DNA of 39,388 nt from Nanobdellota archaeon (lineage in GTDB: Archaea > Nanobdellota > Nanobdellia > Pacearchaeales > GW2011-AR1), in assembly GCA_038045285.1 (NCBI GenBank), contig JBBSYK010000020.1, forward strand, positions 1 through 39,388, written 5' to 3'. The position numbers and the translations under genes are program-made. Below are positions 6,861 to 25,476 of this stretch, in pieces (position 1 is the first letter of the stretch; every line of letters starts with the position of its first letter). The notes under the pieces were generated by a model, which was not told the origin of the DNA, did no database searches, and worked only from the letters and a program-made list of their open reading frames with translations.

Positions 6861-7000
6861 TAGAGAATTCTAGACTATAGAGAGCTTTGAATAACCCTCC
6901 AATTTGATATTATCTGAGGGTTTTCAAAGCGGCTCGATAGAGGACTTTAGGGGTTTTTCAAAGTCTTCTATAAGTAACATAATTACCAGAATTCTCTATA
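6861..7000. mobile_element. MITE-like palindromic element, copy 1 (two internal hairpins, short terminal inverted repeats)
   Basis: Terminal inverted repeats tagagaattcta (6861-6872) and cagaattctcta (6987-6998). Hairpin 1 spans 6884-6930 (gctttgaaTaaccctc / gagggttttcaaagc). Hairpin 2 spans 6940-6968 (gaggacttt / aaagtcttc). A second copy lies at 18246-18345. Confidence 0.6.
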
Positions 7001-14081: not shown

Positions 14082-14273
14082 TTAATATTCTCCTATCTTA
14101 ACCTCTTTAATTTTCTCAAAGTGTTTTTTATTTCTGGTAAAAAGAGTTTCATTATTTATAATTGTAATTGCACCAATCATCATAAGGACGCCGTCCTCCG
14201 CCGTAGGCGGATTTTTTGCGAAGCAAAAAACCTTTAGGAGATGGAGGATGTCACATATCGCATCTAATTTCAC
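14082..14273 (-). pseudogene. C-terminal fragment of a second PIN-domain (VapC-like) gene, its 5' part replaced by a GC-rich hairpin cluster
   Basis: The C-terminal half, LMMIGAITIINNETLFTRNKKHFEKIKEVKI, matches the last PIN strand/helix (D..iaA.A.......l.T.n.khF). The N-terminal 30 aa are encoded by three consecutive perfect hairpins. Confidence 0.4.
14186..14230. repeat. Array of three abutting perfect hairpins with 3-nt loops
   Basis: GGAC-gcc-GTCC (14186-14196), CCGCC-gta-GGCGG (14198-14210), TTTTTTGC-gaa-GCAAAAAA (14212-14230). Locally GC-rich in an AT-rich background. Confidence 0.6.
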
Positions 14274-14689
14274 ATATCTTTTAGGAGGCTAAGAATCTCT
14301 GCAGTTTTCCGCAATTTAACACGATTCTGCTTTTCAAAATGTGTATCATCGCTCCATATGCCGTCATTTTCAACAGCAAGGGCAGTAGCAGTAAAAACAA
14401 CGTCATTTTTATCAATGTTTCCTATGATAGAATTAGCTTCATCCATAAAAGGATCTAATATATTTTGCTGAACAAAATTTATGTAAGAAGTTATCTTTTC
14501 TAATAACTCATGATATTGAGAGGGTGTTAGTCCGGATTTTTCAAGAATAAGTGTTTCATATTTTTTAATTTCGCCTAAAGCTACAAGAGGATAAAAAAAC
14601 TTCCATCCAGACTTTATAATTATTTTTCGCGTTAGAGAATCTTTAATAAGGGCAGCTAGAAGAATATTAGTATCAAGAATAATTCTCAT
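14270..14689 (-). CDS. PIN-domain ribonuclease toxin (VapC-like)
   Basis: MRIILDTNILLAAL (first acidic residue), ...DVVFTATALAVENDGIWSDDTHF (C-terminal acidic residues). 4-nt overlap with the upstream antitoxin ORF. Confidence 0.8.
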   Translation of the reverse strand: MRIILDTNILLAALIKDSLTRKIIIKSGWKFFYPLVALGEIKKYETLILEKSGLTPSQYHELLEKITSYINFVQQNILDPFMDEANSIIGNIDKNDVVFTATALAVENDGIWSDDTHFEKQNRVKLRKTAEILSLLKDM

Positions 14690-18245: not shown

Positions 18246-18345
18246 ATTATAGAGAGCTTTGAATAACCCTTATTTTCAAATGGTTTTCAAAGCGATTCTT
18301 AGAGGATTTTTGGGGTTTTTCAAAATCCCCTATAGACTAGAATTA
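18246..18345. mobile_element. MITE-like palindromic element, copy 2
   Basis: Aligns with copy 1 across tatagagagctttgaataaccc...ggttttcaaagcg...tagagga.ttt..ggggtttttcaaa.tc..ctatag. Right end ctatagactagaatt is the inverse of the copy 1 left end. Flanked by the 9-bp direct repeat TTTGAATTA (18237-18245 and 18346-18354). Confidence 0.6.
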
Positions 18346-18450
18346 TTTGAATTATGACTCAGCATGTTTAGGGCGTCGGAGGAGATCATATAAATAATCT
18401 TTTGGTATGTTATCATAAATTATATTATGATGCCATAATGTTAGTTTCAA

Positions 18451-18598
18451 TTTTTGAGAATGCCTAAGATAATAATTTCAAACAAAGAAATAGGAAATAA
18501 TATTTTTTCTCCCACCCAATAGGAGAGACGCGCGCAGTTTTCTTTTCAAGAAAACTAGATTGCAAAAACTTCGTTTTTGGATTTATAGGAGGATTTCC
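18451..18598. repeat. Left arm of a long degenerate inverted repeat bracketing the 9-gene operon
   Basis: Modules: A tttttgagaatgcc (18451-18464), B gaaataatatttttt (18494-18508), C gagagacgcgcgc (18523-18535), D pyrimidine/purine hairpin (18536-18556), E ggatttcc (18591-18598). Each has a reverse-complement partner in the same order at 24618-24737. Confidence 0.75.
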
Positions 18599-18691
18599 TT
18601 AGTCCTTCGGATAGATAGTCTCGCTTTCAGCGAGAAATTTAATTAAAAATAACTTAGTAGTAATCACAATATTAACTTTAAAATAGTAACA

Positions 18692-18699
18692 CTTATAAA
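18692..18699 (+). promoter_or_regulatory. TATA box CTTATAAA, 29 nt upstream of ATG 18721 (operon promoter)
   Basis: Same box and spacing as host genes. Favours ATG 18721 over the TTG 18715 of the ORF track. Confidence 0.45.
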
Positions 18700-18720
18700 C
18701 TTCTAAATATCCTTTTGTAT

Positions 18721-19425
18721 ATGAAAAAACAGTATGATGACTCAACTGCCGATATGAGAGAGACAGTTTTTTCTAAAAATATTCCCAATTTTGTCCATGA
18801 AAAGTTTTTAGATTATGTGGGAAAAACTCCAAATAGGGGTAGAATTTTAGATATTGGAACAGGAAATGGATATATCTTAAGAGAAATTAAAAAGAGATTT
18901 CCTGAGAGATATGAATTAATAGGTGTTGATTCTTCTCCTTCCATGTTAGAGAAAGCAAGATTAATTGATAAAACAATAGAATATTTGTTAGCAGATAACA
19001 ATAATCTTCCCTTTAGGGATGGCCATTTTTCAACAGTTACAGCGAAAAATGTTACTCGCTTTTCAGCAGAAGAATTTGCAAGAGTTTTACAAGTAGGAGG
19101 ATTATTTGTCTTTAGAGAATACGGACCAGGAAAAGGGTTAGTTGAAATTTCTAAACTCTTTCCGGATAGATTAATTAGATCTCGTGAGCTGGATTATTAT
19201 GTTACCCAGTTAAATAAATCTGGATTTGAGAGTATCAATGTTGAAAGATTTACTATTCAAAGACAATATGCTCAAGAGGAATTGTTAAAGATTGTTCAAA
19301 TGTTTCCATTTATTGAGAATATGGATGATTCAGATTTAGAAAAGATAAAATATCTTTTTAGAGGAAAAGAATTTATTAAAGTAACTTCCGATCCATTTAT
19401 CTTAACAGCAAGGAGGAAAAAATGA
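18721..19425 (+). CDS. Class I SAM-dependent methyltransferase (UbiE/Methyltransf_11-like)
   Basis: Motif I ILDIGTGNGYIL, ELIGVDSSPSMLEKA, LPFRDGHFS, GGLFVF. Confidence 0.8.
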   Translation: MKKQYDDSTADMRETVFSKNIPNFVHEKFLDYVGKTPNRGRILDIGTGNGYILREIKKRFPERYELIGVDSSPSMLEKARLIDKTIEYLLADNNNLPFRDGHFSTVTAKNVTRFSAEEFARVLQVGGLFVFREYGPGKGLVEISKLFPDRLIRSRELDYYVTQLNKSGFESINVERFTIQRQYAQEELLKIVQMFPFIENMDDSDLEKIKYLFRGKEFIKVTSDPFILTARRKK

Positions 19426-20351
19426 TAAGCTATGATACTTTAATTATTGGTGGAGGTCCTGCAGGAATGTCTGCAGCATTATTTGCACAAGGAGATGGAT
19501 TAAATTTTAGATTGAGTGAAAAAGGGATTCCTTGCCAGTTTGTTGAAGAAACAATCAATACCAATTTTACTAATTTAGAAAATTATCTTGGTCTATATGA
19601 TATGGACGGAACATCTGTGGCGCGAATTTTTAGAAAACATTTGGAAGATAGAAAAATTCCCCTATTTCACGAAGAAATAAAGGATATAAAACCTCTTGAT
19701 AATCTTTTTTGTATAAATTCAGATAAAGGAGAGTACATGGCAAAAACGATTATTCTAGCTACGGGAACTAGACCAAGGGAATTAACAATTCCTGGAATAG
19801 AAAATGTTCTTGAAAGAGTTCATTATGGAATTAACAAAGATTTTTCTCACTATAAAAATCATGTTGCCCTAGTTGTTGGGGGAAGAAATTCTGGAGCAGT
19901 TACTGCAGTTAGATTAAAAGAAATTGGGGTAAACCCAATCGTAATAGAAAAATCATCTAAATCAACAGCTAAAACAAAATATTTAGAAAAACTGGACGAA
20001 TTATCAATACCGCTATTAACAAATGCGAATCTTGAAAAAATTGTAGGCTTTCGAGGAATACAAGAGGCACATGTTACAATCAATAATAAATTAAAAATTT
20101 TTAATCCGATTGCTATATTTGGTTGTATTGGATATACTCCAAATAACAGAATTGCGGTAGATCTCGGATTACAATTAGATAAAGAAGGGTATATTGAAGT
20201 TGATAGAAAAATGCAAACCTCTATGGAAGGAGTATATGCGGCTGGAGATGTTAATGGCGGAGTTAAAATGATTGCTGTTGCATCAGGAGAAGGAGCAATA
20301 GCAGAATATTATGCTAATGGATATGTAAAATTAAAATGGAAAGAAGAATAG
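19422..20351 (+). CDS. Thioredoxin-reductase-fold FAD/NAD(P)-binding oxidoreductase lacking the CxxC redox centre
   Basis: DTLIIGGGPAGMSAA (FAD), VVGGRNSGAVTAVRL (second dinucleotide fold), VYAAGDVNGG. No CxxC (CATCDG-type) anywhere. ATGA overlap with the upstream gene; GGAGG 6 nt upstream. Confidence 0.75.
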   Translation: MISYDTLIIGGGPAGMSAALFAQGDGLNFRLSEKGIPCQFVEETINTNFTNLENYLGLYDMDGTSVARIFRKHLEDRKIPLFHEEIKDIKPLDNLFCINSDKGEYMAKTIILATGTRPRELTIPGIENVLERVHYGINKDFSHYKNHVALVVGGRNSGAVTAVRLKEIGVNPIVIEKSSKSTAKTKYLEKLDELSIPLLTNANLEKIVGFRGIQEAHVTINNKLKIFNPIAIFGCIGYTPNNRIAVDLGLQLDKEGYIEVDRKMQTSMEGVYAAGDVNGGVKMIAVASGEGAIAEYYANGYVKLKWKEE

Positions 20352-20815
20352 GAATGTTATTTGATTGTTTAAGGGCACCTTATGATGTAGCCCATATCTA
20401 TCAGGTAGCTGTTGCTTTAGGAAATTGTGATTTATATTTATCAGGAAATAGTATTGATCCAAATCATAAAAAAATTGTTAGTAAAACAAGATCTTGGGGT
20501 ATTGAGGAGATACCCTCTTTTAGAAAGTTTGAATCTTTGAAATCTGCAGCGGAGCATCTGCATCGAGAAGGGAAATATTTGATAGGGACATCTCCCAATA
20601 CAGATAATGATCTCTATAATTATAATTTTACAAAGCATGATTCTGTTATTGTTTTTGGAACAGAATCTTCTGGATTAACTAAAAGAAAGTCTCTTTTACT
20701 TGATGATTTAATAAAAATACCCATGAATTCTGAATGTAAATTTCTAACATTGCCTACCGCAGTTCCAGTTATAGCTTATGAATTCTATAGGCAAATAAAG
20801 GAGGCTGGAAAATGA
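20336..20815 (+). CDS. Divergent SPOUT (SpoU/TrmH-like) methyltransferase-fold protein
   Basis: IVFGTESSGL (motif 2) and IKIPMNSECKFLTLPTAVPVIAYEF (motif 3-like). Motif 1 (N.G...R) is not recognisable. An alternative start is ATG 20354. Confidence 0.6.
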   Translation: MERRIGMLFDCLRAPYDVAHIYQVAVALGNCDLYLSGNSIDPNHKKIVSKTRSWGIEEIPSFRKFESLKSAAEHLHREGKYLIGTSPNTDNDLYNYNFTKHDSVIVFGTESSGLTKRKSLLLDDLIKIPMNSECKFLTLPTAVPVIAYEFYRQIKEAGK

Positions 20816-21888
20816 AATCTTTGGATGGAAAGGTATTGTATATTATAGGAACCGGAGCAAAGAAAATTACGCAGATTCCTCGTATGATACAGGAATTTGT
20901 TGGTGAAGGAGCAGAGATTTACACTATGATGTCTGATATAGGTAAACAGATATGTGATTCTGGTTTATCAGAATTTAGAATAAATAGAAATACGATTATT
21001 CAGGGTTATTCAGGAGAAGGAGAAGCTTTACCTTTAGAAGATATGGTTTTAGTTGCACCTTGCACTTTCAATACTTTAAATAAAATTGCGGGAGGTATTG
21101 CAGATACTTATCCATTAACAATAGCTGCTACAGCAATAGGAGCTGGAAGAAATGTTGTAATTGCTCCCGCTATGAATGGAGACTTATGGTATCATCCTAT
21201 TATGCAAGAATCAAGAAAGAAATTAGAACAGTGGGGCTGTAAAATTGTTTGGCCAGAGATTACCCCCGAGAAAGTTACAATGGCTCCAATTGAAAAAATC
21301 GCTGATACAGTGTATCACATTTTATCTGGAACGCGATATGATTCTGAACAAGTTGAAAGAACCATTGATTTTGATAGATTAGTTGATAACCATTATACTG
21401 AATTTAGGGAAGTCGGTCAAGAATTAGTTGATATTGATTTAACAAGAGGAACTGGGGGTTGTTTAAGTAAAAAAGTAAACGAAGGAATTTTGGTTTCAGC
21501 GAGTGGATCTCAAGTTGGAAGTTTATCTAAACAAGACATTTCCTTAATAATAAAAGTTGAAAATGAAAAGATTCATTGGATGGGATATAAAAAACCATCT
21601 TCAGAATCTCCATTACTTTCTGAGTTATATCAAAATTTCTCAGAAGCAAATGCGATCATCCATAGTCATTGTCCAAGAATTACCTATGATAGTAAAATGC
21701 AAAAATACTCGATTCCTAATTATGTTCGAGCAGGTTGTTTTGGTGAAGGAAAGAAAATCGCAAATGTTATCTCGGATAATGAGGGTTTTGCAATTTTAAG
21801 ACTTCATGGGGAATTGGCTGTTGGAAGTTCATTACAAGAGGTATATCAAAAATTAAAAACAAAGATGGAGGAAGCACATGAAAGATAA
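20812..21888 (+). CDS. Fusion protein: HFCD/PPC-decarboxylase-like flavoprotein domain (N) + class II aldolase/adducin domain (C)
   Basis: N-terminal domain: VLYIIGTGAKK, VLVAPCTFNTLNKIAGGIADTYPLT, IAPAMNGDLWYHP (PAMNxxMW-type). C-terminal domain: GTGGCLSKK, LVSASGS, KPSSES, AIIHSHCP (HxH), LRLHGELAVG. GGAGG upstream; 4-nt overlap. Confidence 0.75.
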   Translation: MKSLDGKVLYIIGTGAKKITQIPRMIQEFVGEGAEIYTMMSDIGKQICDSGLSEFRINRNTIIQGYSGEGEALPLEDMVLVAPCTFNTLNKIAGGIADTYPLTIAATAIGAGRNVVIAPAMNGDLWYHPIMQESRKKLEQWGCKIVWPEITPEKVTMAPIEKIADTVYHILSGTRYDSEQVERTIDFDRLVDNHYTEFREVGQELVDIDLTRGTGGCLSKKVNEGILVSASGSQVGSLSKQDISLIIKVENEKIHWMGYKKPSSESPLLSELYQNFSEANAIIHSHCPRITYDSKMQKYSIPNYVRAGCFGEGKKIANVISDNEGFAILRLHGELAVGSSLQEVYQKLKTKMEEAHER

Positions 21889-22426
21889 GTTAACAACATT
21901 AATTGCAGGACCTACTGATAGAACAAAATTATTTAGATTTGGAAGCATTGCTCCAGCAGAATACCAAAATTTTATAGGTAAAAGGGCTGGTATACTGGCA
22001 AGGTATATACCTCAAATAAATATTATCCCTGATGATGGAGTTCCTTTGGATATTGCCAGAGCTTATAAAAATTCAGGAGGTGAGAATGTTGTAGGTTATG
22101 TACCAAAGGGTGGAATAAGAAAATTAGAAAAATATTTCCAATATTGCGATAAGATAGAAGAATTTGATACTGGGTGGTCAGGGCTTAATACTTGCCTTAG
22201 TTTAAAAGGAGATATTATTGTTGTTTTCGGTTTCTCACCAGGAACATTGGTTGAAGTAGTATATACAAAATATCACAAAAAATATCTAGATAGAGATGTG
22301 CCAGTTATAATTGACAGAACTACAATTGATGGGAATATGCCTCCAGAATTACTGGACGAATTAAGTATAAGGTACTTTTCTACAAACGATGAATTATCAA
22401 AAATATTGGAGGGGTATAAAAAATGA
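21878..22426 (+). CDS. LOG/SLOG-family (TIGR00725-like) Rossmann-fold nucleotide-binding protein
   Basis: DDGVPLDIARAYKNSGGENVVGYVP and IIVVFGFSPGTLVEV resemble the LOG pattern G.M.a...ga...GG...G..P / ..GG.GTl.E. By-eye call. Confidence 0.55.
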   Translation: MKDKLTTLIAGPTDRTKLFRFGSIAPAEYQNFIGKRAGILARYIPQINIIPDDGVPLDIARAYKNSGGENVVGYVPKGGIRKLEKYFQYCDKIEEFDTGWSGLNTCLSLKGDIIVVFGFSPGTLVEVVYTKYHKKYLDRDVPVIIDRTTIDGNMPPELLDELSIRYFSTNDELSKILEGYKK

Positions 22427-22890
22427 GAGGGCTATATGTGGGGAGATTTGATCCATTTCATTTAGGTCATCTTAAGGCTCATGATTTGTTATGTAAAATC
22501 GTTGATGAAGTTAAAATTGGTATTGGTGCACAAAGAGAAAATGATTTTTTAACTATAGAAGAAAGAATAAAAGGAGTTTATGAAAATACAGGAGTCCAGC
22601 CAGTTGAATTAGAAGATTTGGAGAGTAATCATCCTTTATATTGGGACTGGGGAGAGTATGTTCTGGGGAGGATTGAATATGTAGAAATAGTTGCTACAGG
22701 GAATGACTATGTTAGAGATGATTTTACTAAAAAGAATATTCCTGTTTTATGGCTACCGAGGTATGATAATATAAGTGGGACCATAATTAGAAATAAAATT
22801 AGTGAGAAAGATGATTCTTGGAAATTATTAGTTCCAGAAAAAACAAAATTATTGATATTAAACTCTGTAAGATATAAGGAAACAAAATGA
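22423..22890 (+). CDS. Archaeal NMNAT-fold (HxGH) nucleotidyltransferase
   Basis: MRGLYVGRFDPFHLGHL (GRFqPFHxGH), IGIGAQ, ISGTIIRNKI, W..LVPE: close by eye to archaeal nicotinamide-nucleotide adenylyltransferase. Substrate not determinable. Confidence 0.75.
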   Translation: MRGLYVGRFDPFHLGHLKAHDLLCKIVDEVKIGIGAQRENDFLTIEERIKGVYENTGVQPVELEDLESNHPLYWDWGEYVLGRIEYVEIVATGNDYVRDDFTKKNIPVLWLPRYDNISGTIIRNKISEKDDSWKLLVPEKTKLLILNSVRYKETK

Positions 22891-23621
22891 AACTTTATCA
22901 AGATTTAGCAAAAATGTATGATTTACTCTATTCATATAGAGATTATGGTAAAGAAGCAGATTTTTTAATTAGAAATCTTGCTAAGCGATGTAGCCCAAGA
23001 TTATTAGATGTAGCTTGTGGAACAGGGGTTCATCTTGACGCATTGAGAAAAAGATTACCTTCAGCTATTTTGGAAGGGATTGATTTAAACCAAGGAATGC
23101 TTGATGTTACTAAAGAAAAATCTTTGGATGCTGGATTGACACAAACAGATATGAGGAATTTTGATTTGGGTAGAAACTTTGATTTAGTCTATTGTTTATC
23201 TAGTTCTATTCAATATAATTTATCTCAAGAAGATTTTAAAAGAACTGTTGATTCAATGAGAAATCATGCTGTTGGAGGAAAGGTGGTATTTGATTTAGCA
23301 TACTACGTTGAGAGATGGAAAGAAGGATATACAAATATAACTGCAAATAGTGATGGAAGATTTGATGTTGCTGAGCTTTACACTTCACATTCAAGTGATG
23401 GTTTTTCATATTGGAATCCACTGTATCTAATTAAAGATAAAAAAACTGGCAGAATGGATATGCATGTTGATAAGCATAAAATAAAATTATGGAGTGTCTC
23501 AGAAGTTAGAGATATTTTATCTTCACAGGAAATTCCTTTTAAATTAAAAAGAGGATATTCTGAAGTTGAAGATGAAAATGGAGTTCCAATCTTCATTTTA
23601 GAAGGAATTAAAAAAGAATAA
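22887..23621 (+). CDS. Class I SAM methyltransferase resembling TylM1/DesVI-type NDP-aminosugar N,N-dimethyltransferases
   Basis: YDLLYSYRDYGKEADFL, LLDVACGTGVHL, GIDLNQGML, TDMRNFDLGRNFDLVYCLSSSIQY. Pattern recalled from memory for the TylM1 family. Confidence 0.65.
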   Translation: MKLYQDLAKMYDLLYSYRDYGKEADFLIRNLAKRCSPRLLDVACGTGVHLDALRKRLPSAILEGIDLNQGMLDVTKEKSLDAGLTQTDMRNFDLGRNFDLVYCLSSSIQYNLSQEDFKRTVDSMRNHAVGGKVVFDLAYYVERWKEGYTNITANSDGRFDVAELYTSHSSDGFSYWNPLYLIKDKKTGRMDMHVDKHKIKLWSVSEVRDILSSQEIPFKLKRGYSEVEDENGVPIFILEGIKKE

Positions 23622-23635
23622 ATATTTATAATAAG

Positions 23636-24091
23636 ATGAAAAGAAAAATATTAACTTTTGTTGTGAATGGCAGGAAATTTTTAGCTTTGGAAATGACCAA
23701 ACATCCTGAACATGCTCCAGAAGGAGGATGGTTTGTTGTAACTGGAGGTGTAGAAGAAAATGAATCCTCTGAAGATGCAGTTGCTCGGGAAGTTTTTGAA
23801 GAAACAGGACTAAACATAGAAGAAACAATTTTCTTAAATTGGAGTTCTATTTACGAATGGAGTGGAGAATTATGTGAAGAACAGAATTTTATCTCTTTTG
23901 TTAAACCTGGGGAGGTTATTTTGAATGAAGAGCATTCAAGGTATGAATGGTTAAATCTTGATGAGTTTATTAAAAAAATTAATTGGGATGACGATAAAGA
24001 ATTATTAAAAAAGGTTCTAGAAAAAGCACTTAACAAAGAAAAACACTTTGATAAGATAACTATTAAAGATTATAGGAGAAAAAATGAATAA
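23636..24091 (+). CDS. Nudix hydrolase
   Basis: Complete Nudix box GGVEENESSEDAVAREVFEETGL (Gx5Ex7REUxEExGU). Confidence 0.85.
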   Translation: MKRKILTFVVNGRKFLALEMTKHPEHAPEGGWFVVTGGVEENESSEDAVAREVFEETGLNIEETIFLNWSSIYEWSGELCEEQNFISFVKPGEVILNEEHSRYEWLNLDEFIKKINWDDDKELLKKVLEKALNKEKHFDKITIKDYRRKNE

Positions 24092-24584
24092 TTTAGCCAT
24101 TGCTGTGATGAATTTAGCAAATGAAACTAATGTTGGTGGTTTAATTAGAACTGCTAACGCAGCAAATATTAAAGAAGTGGTTATAGTTGGAAGAAAAAAA
24201 TGGAATAAGGGTGCTGCCACAGGAGCACATTCAAAGATCAACGTTGTTAAAATGAGAACTTCAGATGAATTTATTGAATATTGTAAGGAGCATGATTATA
24301 ATATTGTATCAATTGAAATAGGCAATGATTCTAAGAATCTTTTTGATTACAGATATCCAAACAATCCGATGTTAGTTATTGGAAATGAAGGAACAGGAGT
24401 TCCACAAAAAATTCTTGAGAATTCTATTGATAGAATTTATATCCCTCAATACGGAAGTGTTGAATGTTTAAATGCTGCGGTTGCAGGAAGTATTGTTATT
24501 TATGATTGGATTAAAAAGAATAATTCTTGTAAAGAATTAGATACAATAGATAGAAAATTTGATATTTACAAATTCCAAAAATAG
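24084..24584 (+). CDS. SpoU/TrmH-family (SPOUT) 2'-O-ribose methyltransferase-like protein, canonical motifs
   Basis: NVGGLIRTA (motif 1), LVIGNEGTGV (motif 2), IPQYGSVECLNAAVAGSIVIYDW (motif 3). AGGAG upstream; 8-nt overlap with the Nudix gene. Confidence 0.85.
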   Translation: MNNLAIAVMNLANETNVGGLIRTANAANIKEVVIVGRKKWNKGAATGAHSKINVVKMRTSDEFIEYCKEHDYNIVSIEIGNDSKNLFDYRYPNNPMLVIGNEGTGVPQKILENSIDRIYIPQYGSVECLNAAVAGSIVIYDWIKKNNSCKELDTIDRKFDIYKFQK

Positions 24585-24587
24585 CGA

Positions 24588-24608
24588 CTTCTTTTTAGAA
24601 AAAAGAAG
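24588..24608 (+). terminator. Perfect hairpin CTTCTTTTT-aga-AAAAAGAAG 4 nt after the operon stop (possible terminator)
   Basis: Contains a T5 run. The terminator role is an inference. Confidence 0.3.
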
Positions 24609-24617
24609 CAAAAAGAC

Positions 24618-24737
24618 GGAAATCCCCCTTTTCTTTTTTTAGGAAAAAAAGAAACAAAAAAAGCGCGCGTCTCTCTAATACATGGTCCACCCAAAAAAAT
24701 ATTATTTCAGAATTATATAAAACGGCATTCTCAAAAA
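24618..24737. repeat. Right arm of the long degenerate inverted repeat
   Basis: Partners of the left-arm modules: E' ggaaatcc (24618-24625), D' hairpin TTTCTTTTTTT-agg-AAAAAAAGAAA (24630-24654), C' gcgcgcgtctctc (24663-24675), B' aaaaaatattatttc (24694-24708), A' ggcattctcaaaaa (24724-24737). Confidence 0.75.
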
Positions 24738-24975
24738 CTTTGATTTTTTGCCTTCAGCATCGTTGCATTAAAATCTCGTCCTCATTTCATTCAGAGAATA
24801 GAACAGGGCTTAAACGGTTCCGAAACCTTGCAGGTTTCTCCACCCAAATTGCTCGCCACTCAAAAATTTTCCATCTCTGAAGCTCATTGGGTTGCCTATT
24901 CGCTTCGAGGGAAAATTTTTAGGAGGGCTCGCAACTTCGGTTAAGCTCGATGTTAGTTTCAATTGAGAAAAAGCG

Positions 24976-25287: not shown

Positions 25288-25401
25288 GTTATCGCGCCTT
25301 TTCTCAACTCGAGATTTTTCCCTTCGGGAACGTTGCACTCTCCTTTCAGTTGGACGACATAACAGACATTAAACGGCTCAAGTCTTGCAGTCTTTCAGCC
25401 A

Positions 25402-25421
25402 ATATTTGCTGTCGCAAATAT
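25402..25421. promoter_or_regulatory. Perfect 8-bp inverted repeat ATATTTGC-tgtc-GCAAATAT in a divergent intergenic region
   Basis: Lies between the minus-strand ORF (start 25257) and ATG 25477, 27 nt upstream of the weak TATA-like ATTTTAAT (25448-25455). Confidence 0.3.
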
Positions 25422-25476
25422 CTTTCAATGCCATATGTCCCAATAAGATTTTAATCTCTTATTTATTCACATTAAT

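Follow-up and report, generated by a model that had tools for sequence, protein, structure and literature searches.

A nine-gene operon of a Pacearchaeales archaeon lies in a probable integrated gene cassette flanked by the inverted arms of a split attachment site

DPANN archaea are host-dependent organisms with tiny genomes, and their ways of gaining and exchanging genes are poorly understood. We analyzed a DNA stretch of 39,388 nt from a Nanobdellota archaeon of the Pacearchaeales (assembly GCA_038045285.1, contig JBBSYK010000020.1, positions 1 to 39,388), referred to here as the window, in which an operon of nine genes is flanked by two inverted arms. The most probable explanation, to which we assign a probability of roughly 70%, is that this operon sits in an integrated gene cassette: a circular form with a quasi-palindromic attachment site would have integrated site-specifically beside a site of the recombinase XerA, and its attachment site would thereby have been split into the two arms. 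The cassette belongs to a family common to the DPANN lineages Pacearchaeota, Woesearchaeota, and Nanoarchaeota. The anatomy of the cassettes, the family, the pairing rule of the two end types, the boundaries, the association with a recombinase gene and a palindrome, and the occurrence of the same cassettes in different contexts were all observed directly.

Results

Inverted arms of the operon

A sequence-only reading of the window had described the operon as bracketed by degenerate inverted repeats made of five collinear modules. Modules A (18451-64/24724-37), B (18494-508/24694-708), C (18523-35/24663-75), and E (18591-98/24618-25) were verified directly in the sequence as exact reverse complements in mirrored order. 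For module D, a hairpin is present at the equal position in both arms, but the two sequences bear no relation to each other. Together with several other features, this identifies the arms as two distinct element types and not two copies of one; they are termed here L (left) and R (right).

Three or more exact inverted matches of ≥13 nt between both intergenic regions occurred in none of 2000 dinucleotide-preserving shuffles, and one shuffle contained two such matches. Local alignment of the arms gave a score of 35 as compared to 23 ± 2.6 for shuffled sequences; this value is modest because the spacers differ, and the counting of exact collinear matches is the better test. The G+C content of the window is ~31%. 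Module C has no further copy in the window, even when two mismatches are allowed, and none is expected by chance. Between B and C, CCACCCAA is found on the same absolute strand in both arms; this segment is not inverted.

The boundaries originally assigned to the repeats, 18451 and 24737, turned out to be too narrow. The unit extends from 18441 to 24949, between two 15-nt cores at 18438-52 and 24950-64, and the conserved element on the right-hand side runs ~230 nt past module A, to 24964. The reported lack of a recombinase gene in the window was corroborated: tblastn with five recombinases of the family described below gave nothing below E = 0.3, and the flanking genes were checked against Pfam. 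Pfam analysis of the window genes revealed no transposase or invertase either. Additionally, no tRNA was found in the window and a single one across 57 loci, and Rfam gave no match at gathering thresholds in the window and 18 related loci, with matches of chance level at permissive thresholds. On the basis of these results, rRNA flanks, processing stems, and introns were rejected as candidates.

A family of L and R ends in DPANN archaea

L ends consist of an outermost tip, A, B, CTCCCACCCAATAG, C, four hairpins, and GGGGATTTCC. R ends consist of A, B, GGGTGGGCTATGTATTA, C, a T-run, a polypyrimidine/polypurine hairpin, GGGGATTTCC, and a terminal hairpin; beyond A, they continue with a two-hairpin insert of 57-61 nt, an inverted tip (GAAACTAACA), and an apex (GGGCTTAA...variable...TTAAGCCCGATG). 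The motif AAACTAACA is located ~61 nt after A' in 55 of 65 R ends. In the window, the apex reads GGGCTTAA...loop...TTAAGCTCG and forms an imperfect palindrome whose centre varies. The idea, suggested from the sequence alone, that a single small element is present in two inverted copies is not supported by this anatomy: the inner parts of L and R differ, and the insert and the apex are absent from L.

Archaeal and bacterial contigs representing one genome per species were scanned for exact occurrences of B and C together, for which we estimated ~0.3 chance matches. The scan revealed 58 stretches, nearly all of them labelled DPANN (Woese-, Pace-, Nano-, or Aenigmatarchaeota), with multiple copies in several genomes and many copies at contig ends. 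The arms recur at about 85-99% identity in ~45 DPANN species. The L end of the window is 82-94% identical to L ends in 35 loci, and its R end shares 76-96% identity with those of 43 other DPANN loci. Identities of 85-99% between ends were found across species whose proteins are 55-80% identical. Furthermore, a 24-mer covering tip and module A was found in 101 metagenome stretches. The same 24-mer had no match in IMG/VR, where module C gave three chance-like matches; hence, an origin from a virus or provirus was rejected.

A second subfamily combines a different tip and A module (TGTTATCTGTAATTCGAGACGCC) with the same B, C, and inner parts (L ends at loci L012, L017, L041, and L064; R ends at L012 and L052). 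Further diverged L-like elements adjoin the xerA platforms (described below) of L174, L176, and L179. Exact-pattern scans therefore capture only part of the family. One hybrid among ~190 ends (L098, 8781-8950) is L-type in its outer and R-type in its inner part; judging from its composition, it may be the expected product of recombination (inversion) between inverted A-B-C modules. No description of the L/R end family was found in the open-access literature, which was also searched for the literal motifs, and we regard the end and cassette family as undescribed with moderate confidence.

Pairing of ends, cargo, and genomic contexts

All loci together contained 108 L and 84 R ends. These formed 49 convergent L/R pairs, and neither L/L nor R/R pairs were observed. 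Modules scattered without relation to cassette boundaries would have spoken against the proposed bracketing; they do occur at many loci, yet always at cassette boundaries. An invertible segment and a relic of an inverted duplication, both suggested before, do not account for these data: L and R are asymmetric, L is always paired with R, and the same two end types enclose unrelated cargo in dozens of genomes. What is supported is the notion of a bracketed, non-autonomous, cassette-like unit with its recombinase encoded elsewhere.

The cargo between paired L and R ends is 441-6864 nt long and unrelated between loci. Its open reading frames (ORFs) run from L to R in 89 cases and from R to L in 46; 13 cassettes are oriented entirely from R to L and 18 are mixed. 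Restriction-modification genes were found in L051 and L173; further cargo includes a ResIII helicase (L026/L054), an exonuclease, an NYN-domain protein, and a TrmB-type regulator. One cargo ORF resembles class I aminoacyl-tRNA synthetases, as judged by eye from its HLGH/KMSAS motifs and not from a family-library search. The cargo of the window comprises a methyltransferase, a thioredoxin-reductase-like protein, a SpoU protein, a flavoprotein-aldolase fusion, an unknown protein of 182 aa, a cytidylyltransferase-like protein, a second methyltransferase, a Nudix protein, and a second SpoU protein.

The sequence-only reading had suggested looking for the cassette in other contexts, and one was found. 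Locus L056 (on the same scaffold as L097) is the sole other carrier of the nine genes, with 40-90% amino acid identity; the operon again lies between L and R, its neighbours are different, and it is preceded by the apex of another cassette instead of prs. The thioredoxin-reductase-like genes of the two operons (window 19422-20351, L056 1076-1999) are 40% identical, as compared to 67-90% for the eight neighbouring genes, which suggests a gene replacement inside one copy of the shared operon. Other cassettes are 91-94% identical at the nucleotide level between species, with homology stopping at the ends (L020/L058, L026/L054, L027/L032/L040/L061, and L043/L068).

The window contig is part of a metagenome-assembled genome from Hainich groundwater, and its exact prs protein is on record for this contig and for five near-identical ones. 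A prefoldin gene in the window confirms its archaeal origin. The closest relatives found with prs keep the neighbourhood 2-hydroxyacid dehydrogenase, prs, ..., TehB-like methyltransferase, transketolase, and prefoldin. In the relatives L007-L010, the nine-gene operon is absent between prs and transketolase; prs directly adjoins transketolase in L009 and L010, and other small genes are found there in L007 and L008. Apparently, the gap after prs is a variable spot, and operon and arms are specific to the lineage at this site.

Cassette boundaries

The conserved tip reads ATG↓TTAGTTTCAAT, the arrow marking the junction. In 106 distinct outer flanks of L ends, conservation starts at (T)G↓TTAGTTTCAA. 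On the opposite side, 18 of the 19 apex ends examined, including that of the window, terminate with ...TTAA-N4-GATG↓. The last cassette in a row shows an apex ending in ...TTAA-N4-GATG↓TT, followed by variable sequence fitting TTAnnnnCAAT. In the window, L104, and L048, the apex is followed by TTAGTTTCAAT and then by unrelated DNA that is not an L end. Since this boundary pattern is shared across loci, the best reading of the two 15-mers of the window is that of cores common to an attL/attR pair. The ends are delimited by a common core of 15 nt, as is typical of site-specific integration, and not by the terminal inverted repeats and target-site duplication of a classical transposon that had been considered for the window.

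At some junctions, the inverted-tip side is joined straight to a tip (...AACAGCGA↓TTAGTTTCAA), as though recombination at TTA had removed the loop of the apex. The empty site would read ...GATGCCATA-ATGTTAGTTTCAATT-GAGAAAAAGCG.... Locus L179 was considered as an empty site matching the distal flank of L054 and was rejected; a diverged L-like element is present there. The contig of L149 (FLOH01003285.1, 1-1056) has a terminal overlap of 125 nt and represents a 931-nt circle or a collapsed tandem repeat; it contains an L end, one ORF of 127 aa, an R end, an apex, and, at the junction, a 180-nt insert within 10-nt inverted repeats (GATGTTGTAT/ATACAACATC).

A Xer-like recombinase gene and a palindrome adjoin L ends

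Clustering of 367 neighbouring ORFs gave one dominant family. Its 13 members are tyrosine recombinases of 270-290 aa, encoded divergently just outside L ends; no transposase cluster was found among these ORFs. A divergent gene for a Xer-like tyrosine recombinase is located ≤400 nt from the tip in 17 of the 85 L tips with at least 1 kb of outward flank, and none was found beside the 21 R ends of the first, genome-derived set. The recombinases match PF00589 and score 193-211 bits with the archaeal XerA model NF040815 (cutoff 220). With the integron-integrase model TIGR02249 (cutoff 265) they reach 183 bits in two stretches that skip profile positions ~179-236. In PDB, they are equally close to XerA (5hxy, 6e-38, one stretch) and to IntI4 (2a3v, alignment split in two). 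A canonical integron was rejected as an explanation, the recombinase lacking the IntI-specific domain near patch III.

The interval between tip and recombinase gene contains a TATA-like box and a palindrome, the arms of which covary from locus to locus; we refer to this arrangement as the platform. Since the first loci had been chosen through their repeats, six loci on long contigs were sampled independently via recombinase homologues. All six contain a perfect 10-6-10 palindrome 46-57 nt upstream of the xerA start codon, and in five of them an ATG↓TT junction is located 4-6 nt beyond the palindrome. The exception is L173, where the apex of a second cassette is fused straight to a palindrome arm (...CCCCGATG↓TTATCATGA-ATTTAC-TCATGATAAC). 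In the same locus, an intact L-R cassette with a DpnII-type restriction-modification system stands tip to tip with this second cassette across CATCATG. Downstream of xerA, two loci carry topA, one carries smc, and three carry unrelated genes; topA or smc at this position, in three of six loci and also in L011, suggests that the recombinase is the chromosomal xerA. Judged by sequence, the palindrome upstream of xerA may be a functional dif site. Furthermore, tips resemble palindrome arms (TGTTAGTTTCAA, TGTTATCTGTAA, TGTTATCATGA), and a tip may accordingly be read as a putative recombinase-binding arm.

Close homologues of the platform recombinases number in the thousands in these lineages, and very many of the contigs that carry them measure only 1-2 kb. 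These short lengths agree with a breaking of assemblies at repeats beside xerA and suggest that these regions are under-represented in DPANN bins. C-rich motifs of the CCACCCAA type occur on the same strand in L end, R end, and apex (window 18512-19, 24687-94, and 24840-47), and a related motif, GGGTGGTCGGGGG, adjoins the platforms upstream of xerA in L174 and L176 on the strand reading toward the palindrome. From its sequence and strand, the motif could be a polar signal or a binding site of an accessory protein; one reversed cassette in L173 breaks a simple polarity rule.

The window as a probable relic platform

The left flank of the window was aligned with the recombinase-bearing platforms and agrees with them in the position of the TATA-like box, the palindrome, and the 5-nt spacing to the tip. 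Geometry of the palindrome and distance to the tip are those found in L011, L014, L115, and L157. Six-frame translations revealed no recombinase ORF after the TATA-like box of the window; an ORF of 11 codons is followed by a two-hairpin repeat and prs. On sequence grounds, the palindrome of the window corresponds, in decayed form, to the site upstream of xerA, and we read the window as a probable two-cassette array on a platform that lost its recombinase gene. The 120-aa ORF to the right of the cassette, for which neither a Pfam match nor, by exact look-up, the same protein elsewhere was found, is possibly cargo of the second, older cassette. The segment 25330-25434 aligns with the L054 unit with a score of 66 (shuffles 25.0 ± 4.7) and with the first apex of the window with a score of 58; additionally, the region right of the right arm is repeated directly at 25340-79 (direct-repeat family D1). 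With the recombinase gene gone, palindrome and inverted tip decayed, and the second cassette degenerate, the nine-gene cassette is probably fixed in place now. The features of the unit are compiled in Table 1.

Table 1. Features of the cassette unit and its flanks in the window
Feature	Position	Strand	Description
TATA-like box ATTATTTATATGA	18385..18398	-	xerA promoter position in alignment with the recombinase-adjacent flanks L157, L133, L011, L115, L014, L092, L086
dif-like palindrome TGTTATCATAA-ATTATA-TTATGATGCCA	18408..18435	.	11-6-11, 9/11 paired; ends 5 nt before TTAG
Left 15-nt core ATGTTAGTTTCAATT	18438..18452	+	exact direct repeat with 24950-64; attL-type junction, putative crossover ATG↓TTA
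L end	18441..18645	+	tip TTAGTTTCAA, A, B, CTCCCACCCAATAG (18509-22), C, four hairpins, E
L hairpins	18536-56 (1), 18563-79 (2), 18602-12 (3), 18619-35 (4)		E lies between hairpins 2 and 3
Cargo, nine co-oriented genes	18721..24584	+	Pfam
R end	24586..24737	-	A, B, GGGTGGACCATGTATTA, C, T-run, polypyrimidine/polypurine hairpin, GGGGGATTTCC, terminal hairpin (24586-24609)
Two-hairpin insert, R ends only	24738..24795	+	between A' and inverted tip; first 36 nt 92-96% identical in many loci
Inverted tip copy GAATAGAACA and apex	24796..24949	+	inverted tip 24796-805, 7/10 versus consensus GAAACTAACA
Right 15-nt core ATGTTAGTTTCAATT	24950..24964	+	attR-type junction, followed by DNA other than an L end
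ORF of 120 aa	24976..25338	-	between core 24950-64 and second apex remnant
Decayed second insert, inverted tip, and apex	25330..25434	+	ends in possible tip remnant CTTTCAATGCC

Folding of the ends

The natural R-apex-L unit of L045 (1598-2060), folded as a single strand, forms one long hairpin with a free energy of -97.4 kcal/mol (z = -11.3) in which C' pairs with C, B' with B, A' with A, and the tips with each other. The virtual circle junction of the window cassette adopts the same long-hairpin fold (z = -9.6). The B-C segments cannot pair because both carry CCCACCC on the same strand, and the two strands are thereby marked differently. In L hairpins 1-3, the stems are kept by compensatory changes (CTT/AAG to CGA/TCG; GTCC/GGAC to GTGC/GCAC or GTCAC/GTGAC). 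The L hairpins were tabulated singly; RNAalifold on the raw alignment missed hairpin 1, of which indel variants were misaligned. The balance of G-T and A-C mismatches in the L hairpins leaves the strand assignment ambiguous. As far as these computed folds indicate, folding and covariation are compatible alike with duplex DNA, single-stranded DNA, or RNA as the relevant form.

Discussion

Proposed mechanism

The free cassette would be a circle with one attachment site of ~600 bp, a long imperfect palindrome composed of R arm, 57-nt insert, inverted tip, apex, the core ATG↓TTAGTTTCAAT, and L arm. This circle would insert by site-specific recombination at the core into a matching half-site located 5 nt from the dif-like palindrome, just upstream of the chromosomal xerA; the most likely enzyme would be the Xer-like tyrosine recombinase of the host. 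The palindromic site would be cut near its middle, which would place its halves as inverted repeats directly inward of both insert ends, with the core as a direct repeat outside, and successive insertions would build arrays. Modules A-C might be binding sites of accessory proteins or arm-type contacts of the recombinase, and/or stems of a folded single strand; to our knowledge, no accessory proteins are known for L/R arms. For the window cassette, the predicted circle junction reads ...GGTTAAGCTCGATGTTAGTTTCAATTTTTGAGAATGCC... and the predicted empty platform ...TTATGATGCCATAATGTTAGTTTCAATTGAGAAAAAGCG.... Cleavage would be expected at ATG↓TTA of the top strand, with an overlap of 7 bp (CATNATG) like the sequence separating the two tips in L173. 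We infer circular intermediates, XerA as the catalyst, the exact point of cleavage, and the role of modules A-C from sequence comparison.

Several observations weigh against this proposal. The link to the recombinase consists of adjacency, and 68 of the 85 tips are located away from the gene. In many recombinase-adjacent loci, the palindromes beside the tip have spacers of 4-9 nt, and a strict dif geometry is found in only a subset of this repeat-selected set, although in all six loci chosen via the recombinase. The tip lies 5 nt outside the palindrome and not in its spacer, unlike insertion by known Xer-exploiting elements. As L-like sequences of diverged subfamilies adjoin the platform in L174, L176, and L179, L may partly be a resident feature of the platform. 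The material consists of metagenome assemblies throughout, and contigs often break at the L/R repeats. Neither an excision product nor an exact empty site was seen for the window cassette. The contig of L149 is possibly an excised mini-cassette; it is the sole circle-like contig, it carries an extra insert, and a tandem repeat explains it equally well. Finally, the genes carried in the window resemble housekeeping genes, and the sites at this locus show decay.

Comparison with known systems

The cassettes would work like integrons and like elements that use Xer at dif, and they resemble pdif modules as modules bracketed by inverted Xer-type sites, yet they differ from each in defining respects: the recombinase has no IntI domain, the cassettes are multi-gene and face either way, the junction lies outside the spacer, and the ends are composite instead of 28 bp long.

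The attC sites of integrons are imperfect palindromes of 55-150 nt with outer boxes RYYYAAC...GTTRRRY, inner boxes, unpaired bases, and a variable centre. The apex may be comparable to attC as an imperfect palindrome with paired boxes, variable centre, and unpaired bases; its boxes read AACTAAC/GTTAGTT (6/7 each) and its inner boxes GGGCTTAA/TTAAGCCC, with an asymmetric spacer of 1 nt versus 3 nt and a centre of 4-149 nt. As in integrons, variable cargo units are stacked beside a tyrosine recombinase gene, and the putative crossover G↓TT lies in a GTTAG-type box. An array at its integrase is also matched by the 17 of 85 tips close to a divergent recombinase and by the fixed ATG↓TT junction beside the palindrome, and orphan cassettes without a recombinase have their counterpart in attC clusters without an integrase. 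In contrast to integrons, the recombinase gene is followed by topA or smc in three of the six independent xerA loci, suggesting a chromosomal xerA. The cassettes are often multi-gene (0.44-6.9 kb, up to nine genes) and face either way, whereas integron cassettes mostly hold a single promoterless ORF and share one orientation. Every cassette has conserved ends of ~205 bp (L) and ~215 bp (R plus insert), and the whole site measures ~600 bp as compared to 55-150 bp for attC. The integrons reported from archaea belong to the canonical attC type (Ghaly et al. 2022, PMC9668308).

Elements exploiting Xer, such as the phages CTX, TLC, and VGJ of Vibrio and the gonococcal genetic island, likewise lack a recombinase of their own, form tandem arrays, and integrate beside a dif-type site of the host; for the cassettes, the host Xer enzyme would presumably be responsible. 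The attachment site of CTX phage is a folded single-strand hairpin of two inverted dif-like sequences, comparable to the foldable site described here, and xerA together with a palindrome with a 6-nt spacer is found at the locus in all six independent cases (in the window as the 9/11 copy). The differences are the archaeal host with a single XerA-type enzyme, a cargo that is neither phage nor conjugative island, and far longer arms. Moreover, crossover in the spacer with formation of hybrid dif sites was not found: the palindrome is intact and species-specific, with the tip 5 nt beyond its outer arm.

The pdif modules of Acinetobacter plasmids are also gene modules within inverted Xer-type sites, served by a recombinase in trans, and a module is found in several contexts. 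However, pdif sites are simple 11-6-11 sites of 28 bp, whereas the ends described here are composite, 150-400 bp long, of two types, chromosomal, and archaeal; no 11-6-11 site was found inside L or R ends. With the P/P' arms of phage lambda and the accessory sequences of cer/psi, the ends would share a long multi-module site that is split by integration, with arms just inside the insert that hold repeated (here putative) binding modules and not the crossover itself. They differ in that the arms are inverted repeats foldable into one hairpin and that a bare cassette is carried in place of a phage or plasmid.

Alternative explanations

The best surviving alternative, still an unlikely one, regards the ends as acting at the RNA level. 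L would be a conserved promoter with a structured 5' leader and R a terminator, and A-B-C would pair the transcript ends into a panhandle for stability or processing, like archaeal rRNA processing stems. Module B is indeed TATA-like with C ~25 nt downstream, the four L hairpins have TTC/TTCG loops and covary, R read in operon direction presents hairpins followed by T-runs, and any strand holding both arms folds strongly. However, the cargo is transcribed either way relative to L, in 13 cassettes entirely from R to L, and the operon has a TATA-like box of its own ~25 nt before its leaderless ATG at 18721, downstream of the whole L end. A bulge-helix-bulge stem of the archaeal type, with two 3-nt bulges 4 bp apart around a stable RNA, is not present either; the B-C internal loop measures 14 x 17 nt, and no Rfam family was found between or near the arms. 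Adjacency to recombinase and palindrome, the 15-nt core, and the changing contexts would be left unexplained. An RNA role could coexist with cassette integration as a secondary function.

A little less probable than an RNA function is a non-autonomous transposon, either cut-and-paste or single-stranded DNA, with L and R as long terminal repeats in inverted orientation that include subterminal hairpins, and with a DDE or HUH transposase acting in trans. This reading would agree with hairpin-bearing inverted ends of 100-200 bp, with cargo that varies, with genomes holding numerous copies, with contigs that stop at the ends, and with cassettes that contain no recombinase. What disagrees is the lack of a transposase among the clustered or annotated cargo proteins and of a target-site duplication in the flanks, which share a sequence-specific core with the target. 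For a DNA transposon or a miniature inverted-repeat transposable element (MITE), one would expect terminal inverted repeats together with a duplication of fixed length, and a transposase in autonomous copies. Insertion at a fixed position beside one palindrome upstream of xerA, strict L/R asymmetry with an apex at one end only, and zero matches of the 24-mer in IMG/VR argue in the same direction. Inversion in place fares no better: L and R are asymmetric and always paired with each other, the window has no invertase, and L098 is the only hybrid end.

With the same low probability as a transposon, L and R could be resident features of the terminus or dif region, such as accessory or polarity sequences of XerA, that were scattered and duplicated by rearrangement, and the cassettes would simply be genes lying between copies. 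The diverged L-like sequences flanking the platform in L174, L176, and L179, the single polarity of the CCACCCAA-type motifs, and the housekeeping-like cargo of the window point this way. They are opposed by a pairing rule that holds in 49 of 49 pairs, by near-identical cargo and ends in different species with homology ending at the tips, by restriction-modification systems among the cargo, and by ends that are 85-99% identical where the proteins of the species are 55-80% identical. Chance similarity or a local inverted duplication private to the window genome is highly improbable: short matches are plentiful in AT-rich intergenic DNA, with 212 inverted pairs listed in 7.4 kb, but three long matches occurred in 0 of 2000 shuffles, and the same arms are found in dozens of other genomes.

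Implications of cassette integration

If the operon is an integrated cassette, a broader proposal can be made tentatively, at slightly less than even odds: archaea of the Pacearchaeota/Woesearchaeota radiation may possess an undescribed system of gene capture analogous to integrons. A housekeeping XerA and a platform fused to dif would serve cassettes of one to nine genes with foldable palindromic sites of ~600 bp. These cassettes would move between species and provide otherwise minimal genomes with genes for restriction-modification, nucleic acid modification, and metabolism. If so, a pool of cassettes with near-identical ends across dozens of species would constitute a concrete and testable route of gene flow, tied to the dimer-resolution enzyme of the chromosome and independent of a dedicated integrase. 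The principles of integrons and of Xer exploitation would be extended to a new archaeal architecture, and the breaking of DPANN assemblies beside xerA would be accounted for. Tip and module A together would provide a simple sequence tag for mining the mobile gene pool from metagenomes.

Other features of the region

A PIN-domain gene (window 14270-14689) is located 4 kb left of the cassette, and in sister contigs a ribbon-helix-helix gene of 74 aa is called beside it; together they resemble a toxin-antitoxin pair. In this neighbourhood, relatives have HEPN/nucleotidyltransferase or HicAB pairs. These toxin-antitoxin-like pairs differ between relatives, which indicates that the region around the cassette is variable as well.

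The MITE-like element that had been noted 105 bp left of the left arm is a separate two-hairpin repeat (18249-18335) unrelated to the cassette ends. This element (GCTTTGAA...TTCAAAGC, then GGATTTT...AAAATCC) is also found at 6877-6972 of the window and at 6250-6327 of L007. Identity is 77% within the window and 84% with the copy in the relative L007, whose coding DNA in this region reaches 70-82% identity; in the second stem, one change is compensatory. Four independent assemblies of the window strain stop inside or just before this element (18277-18315).

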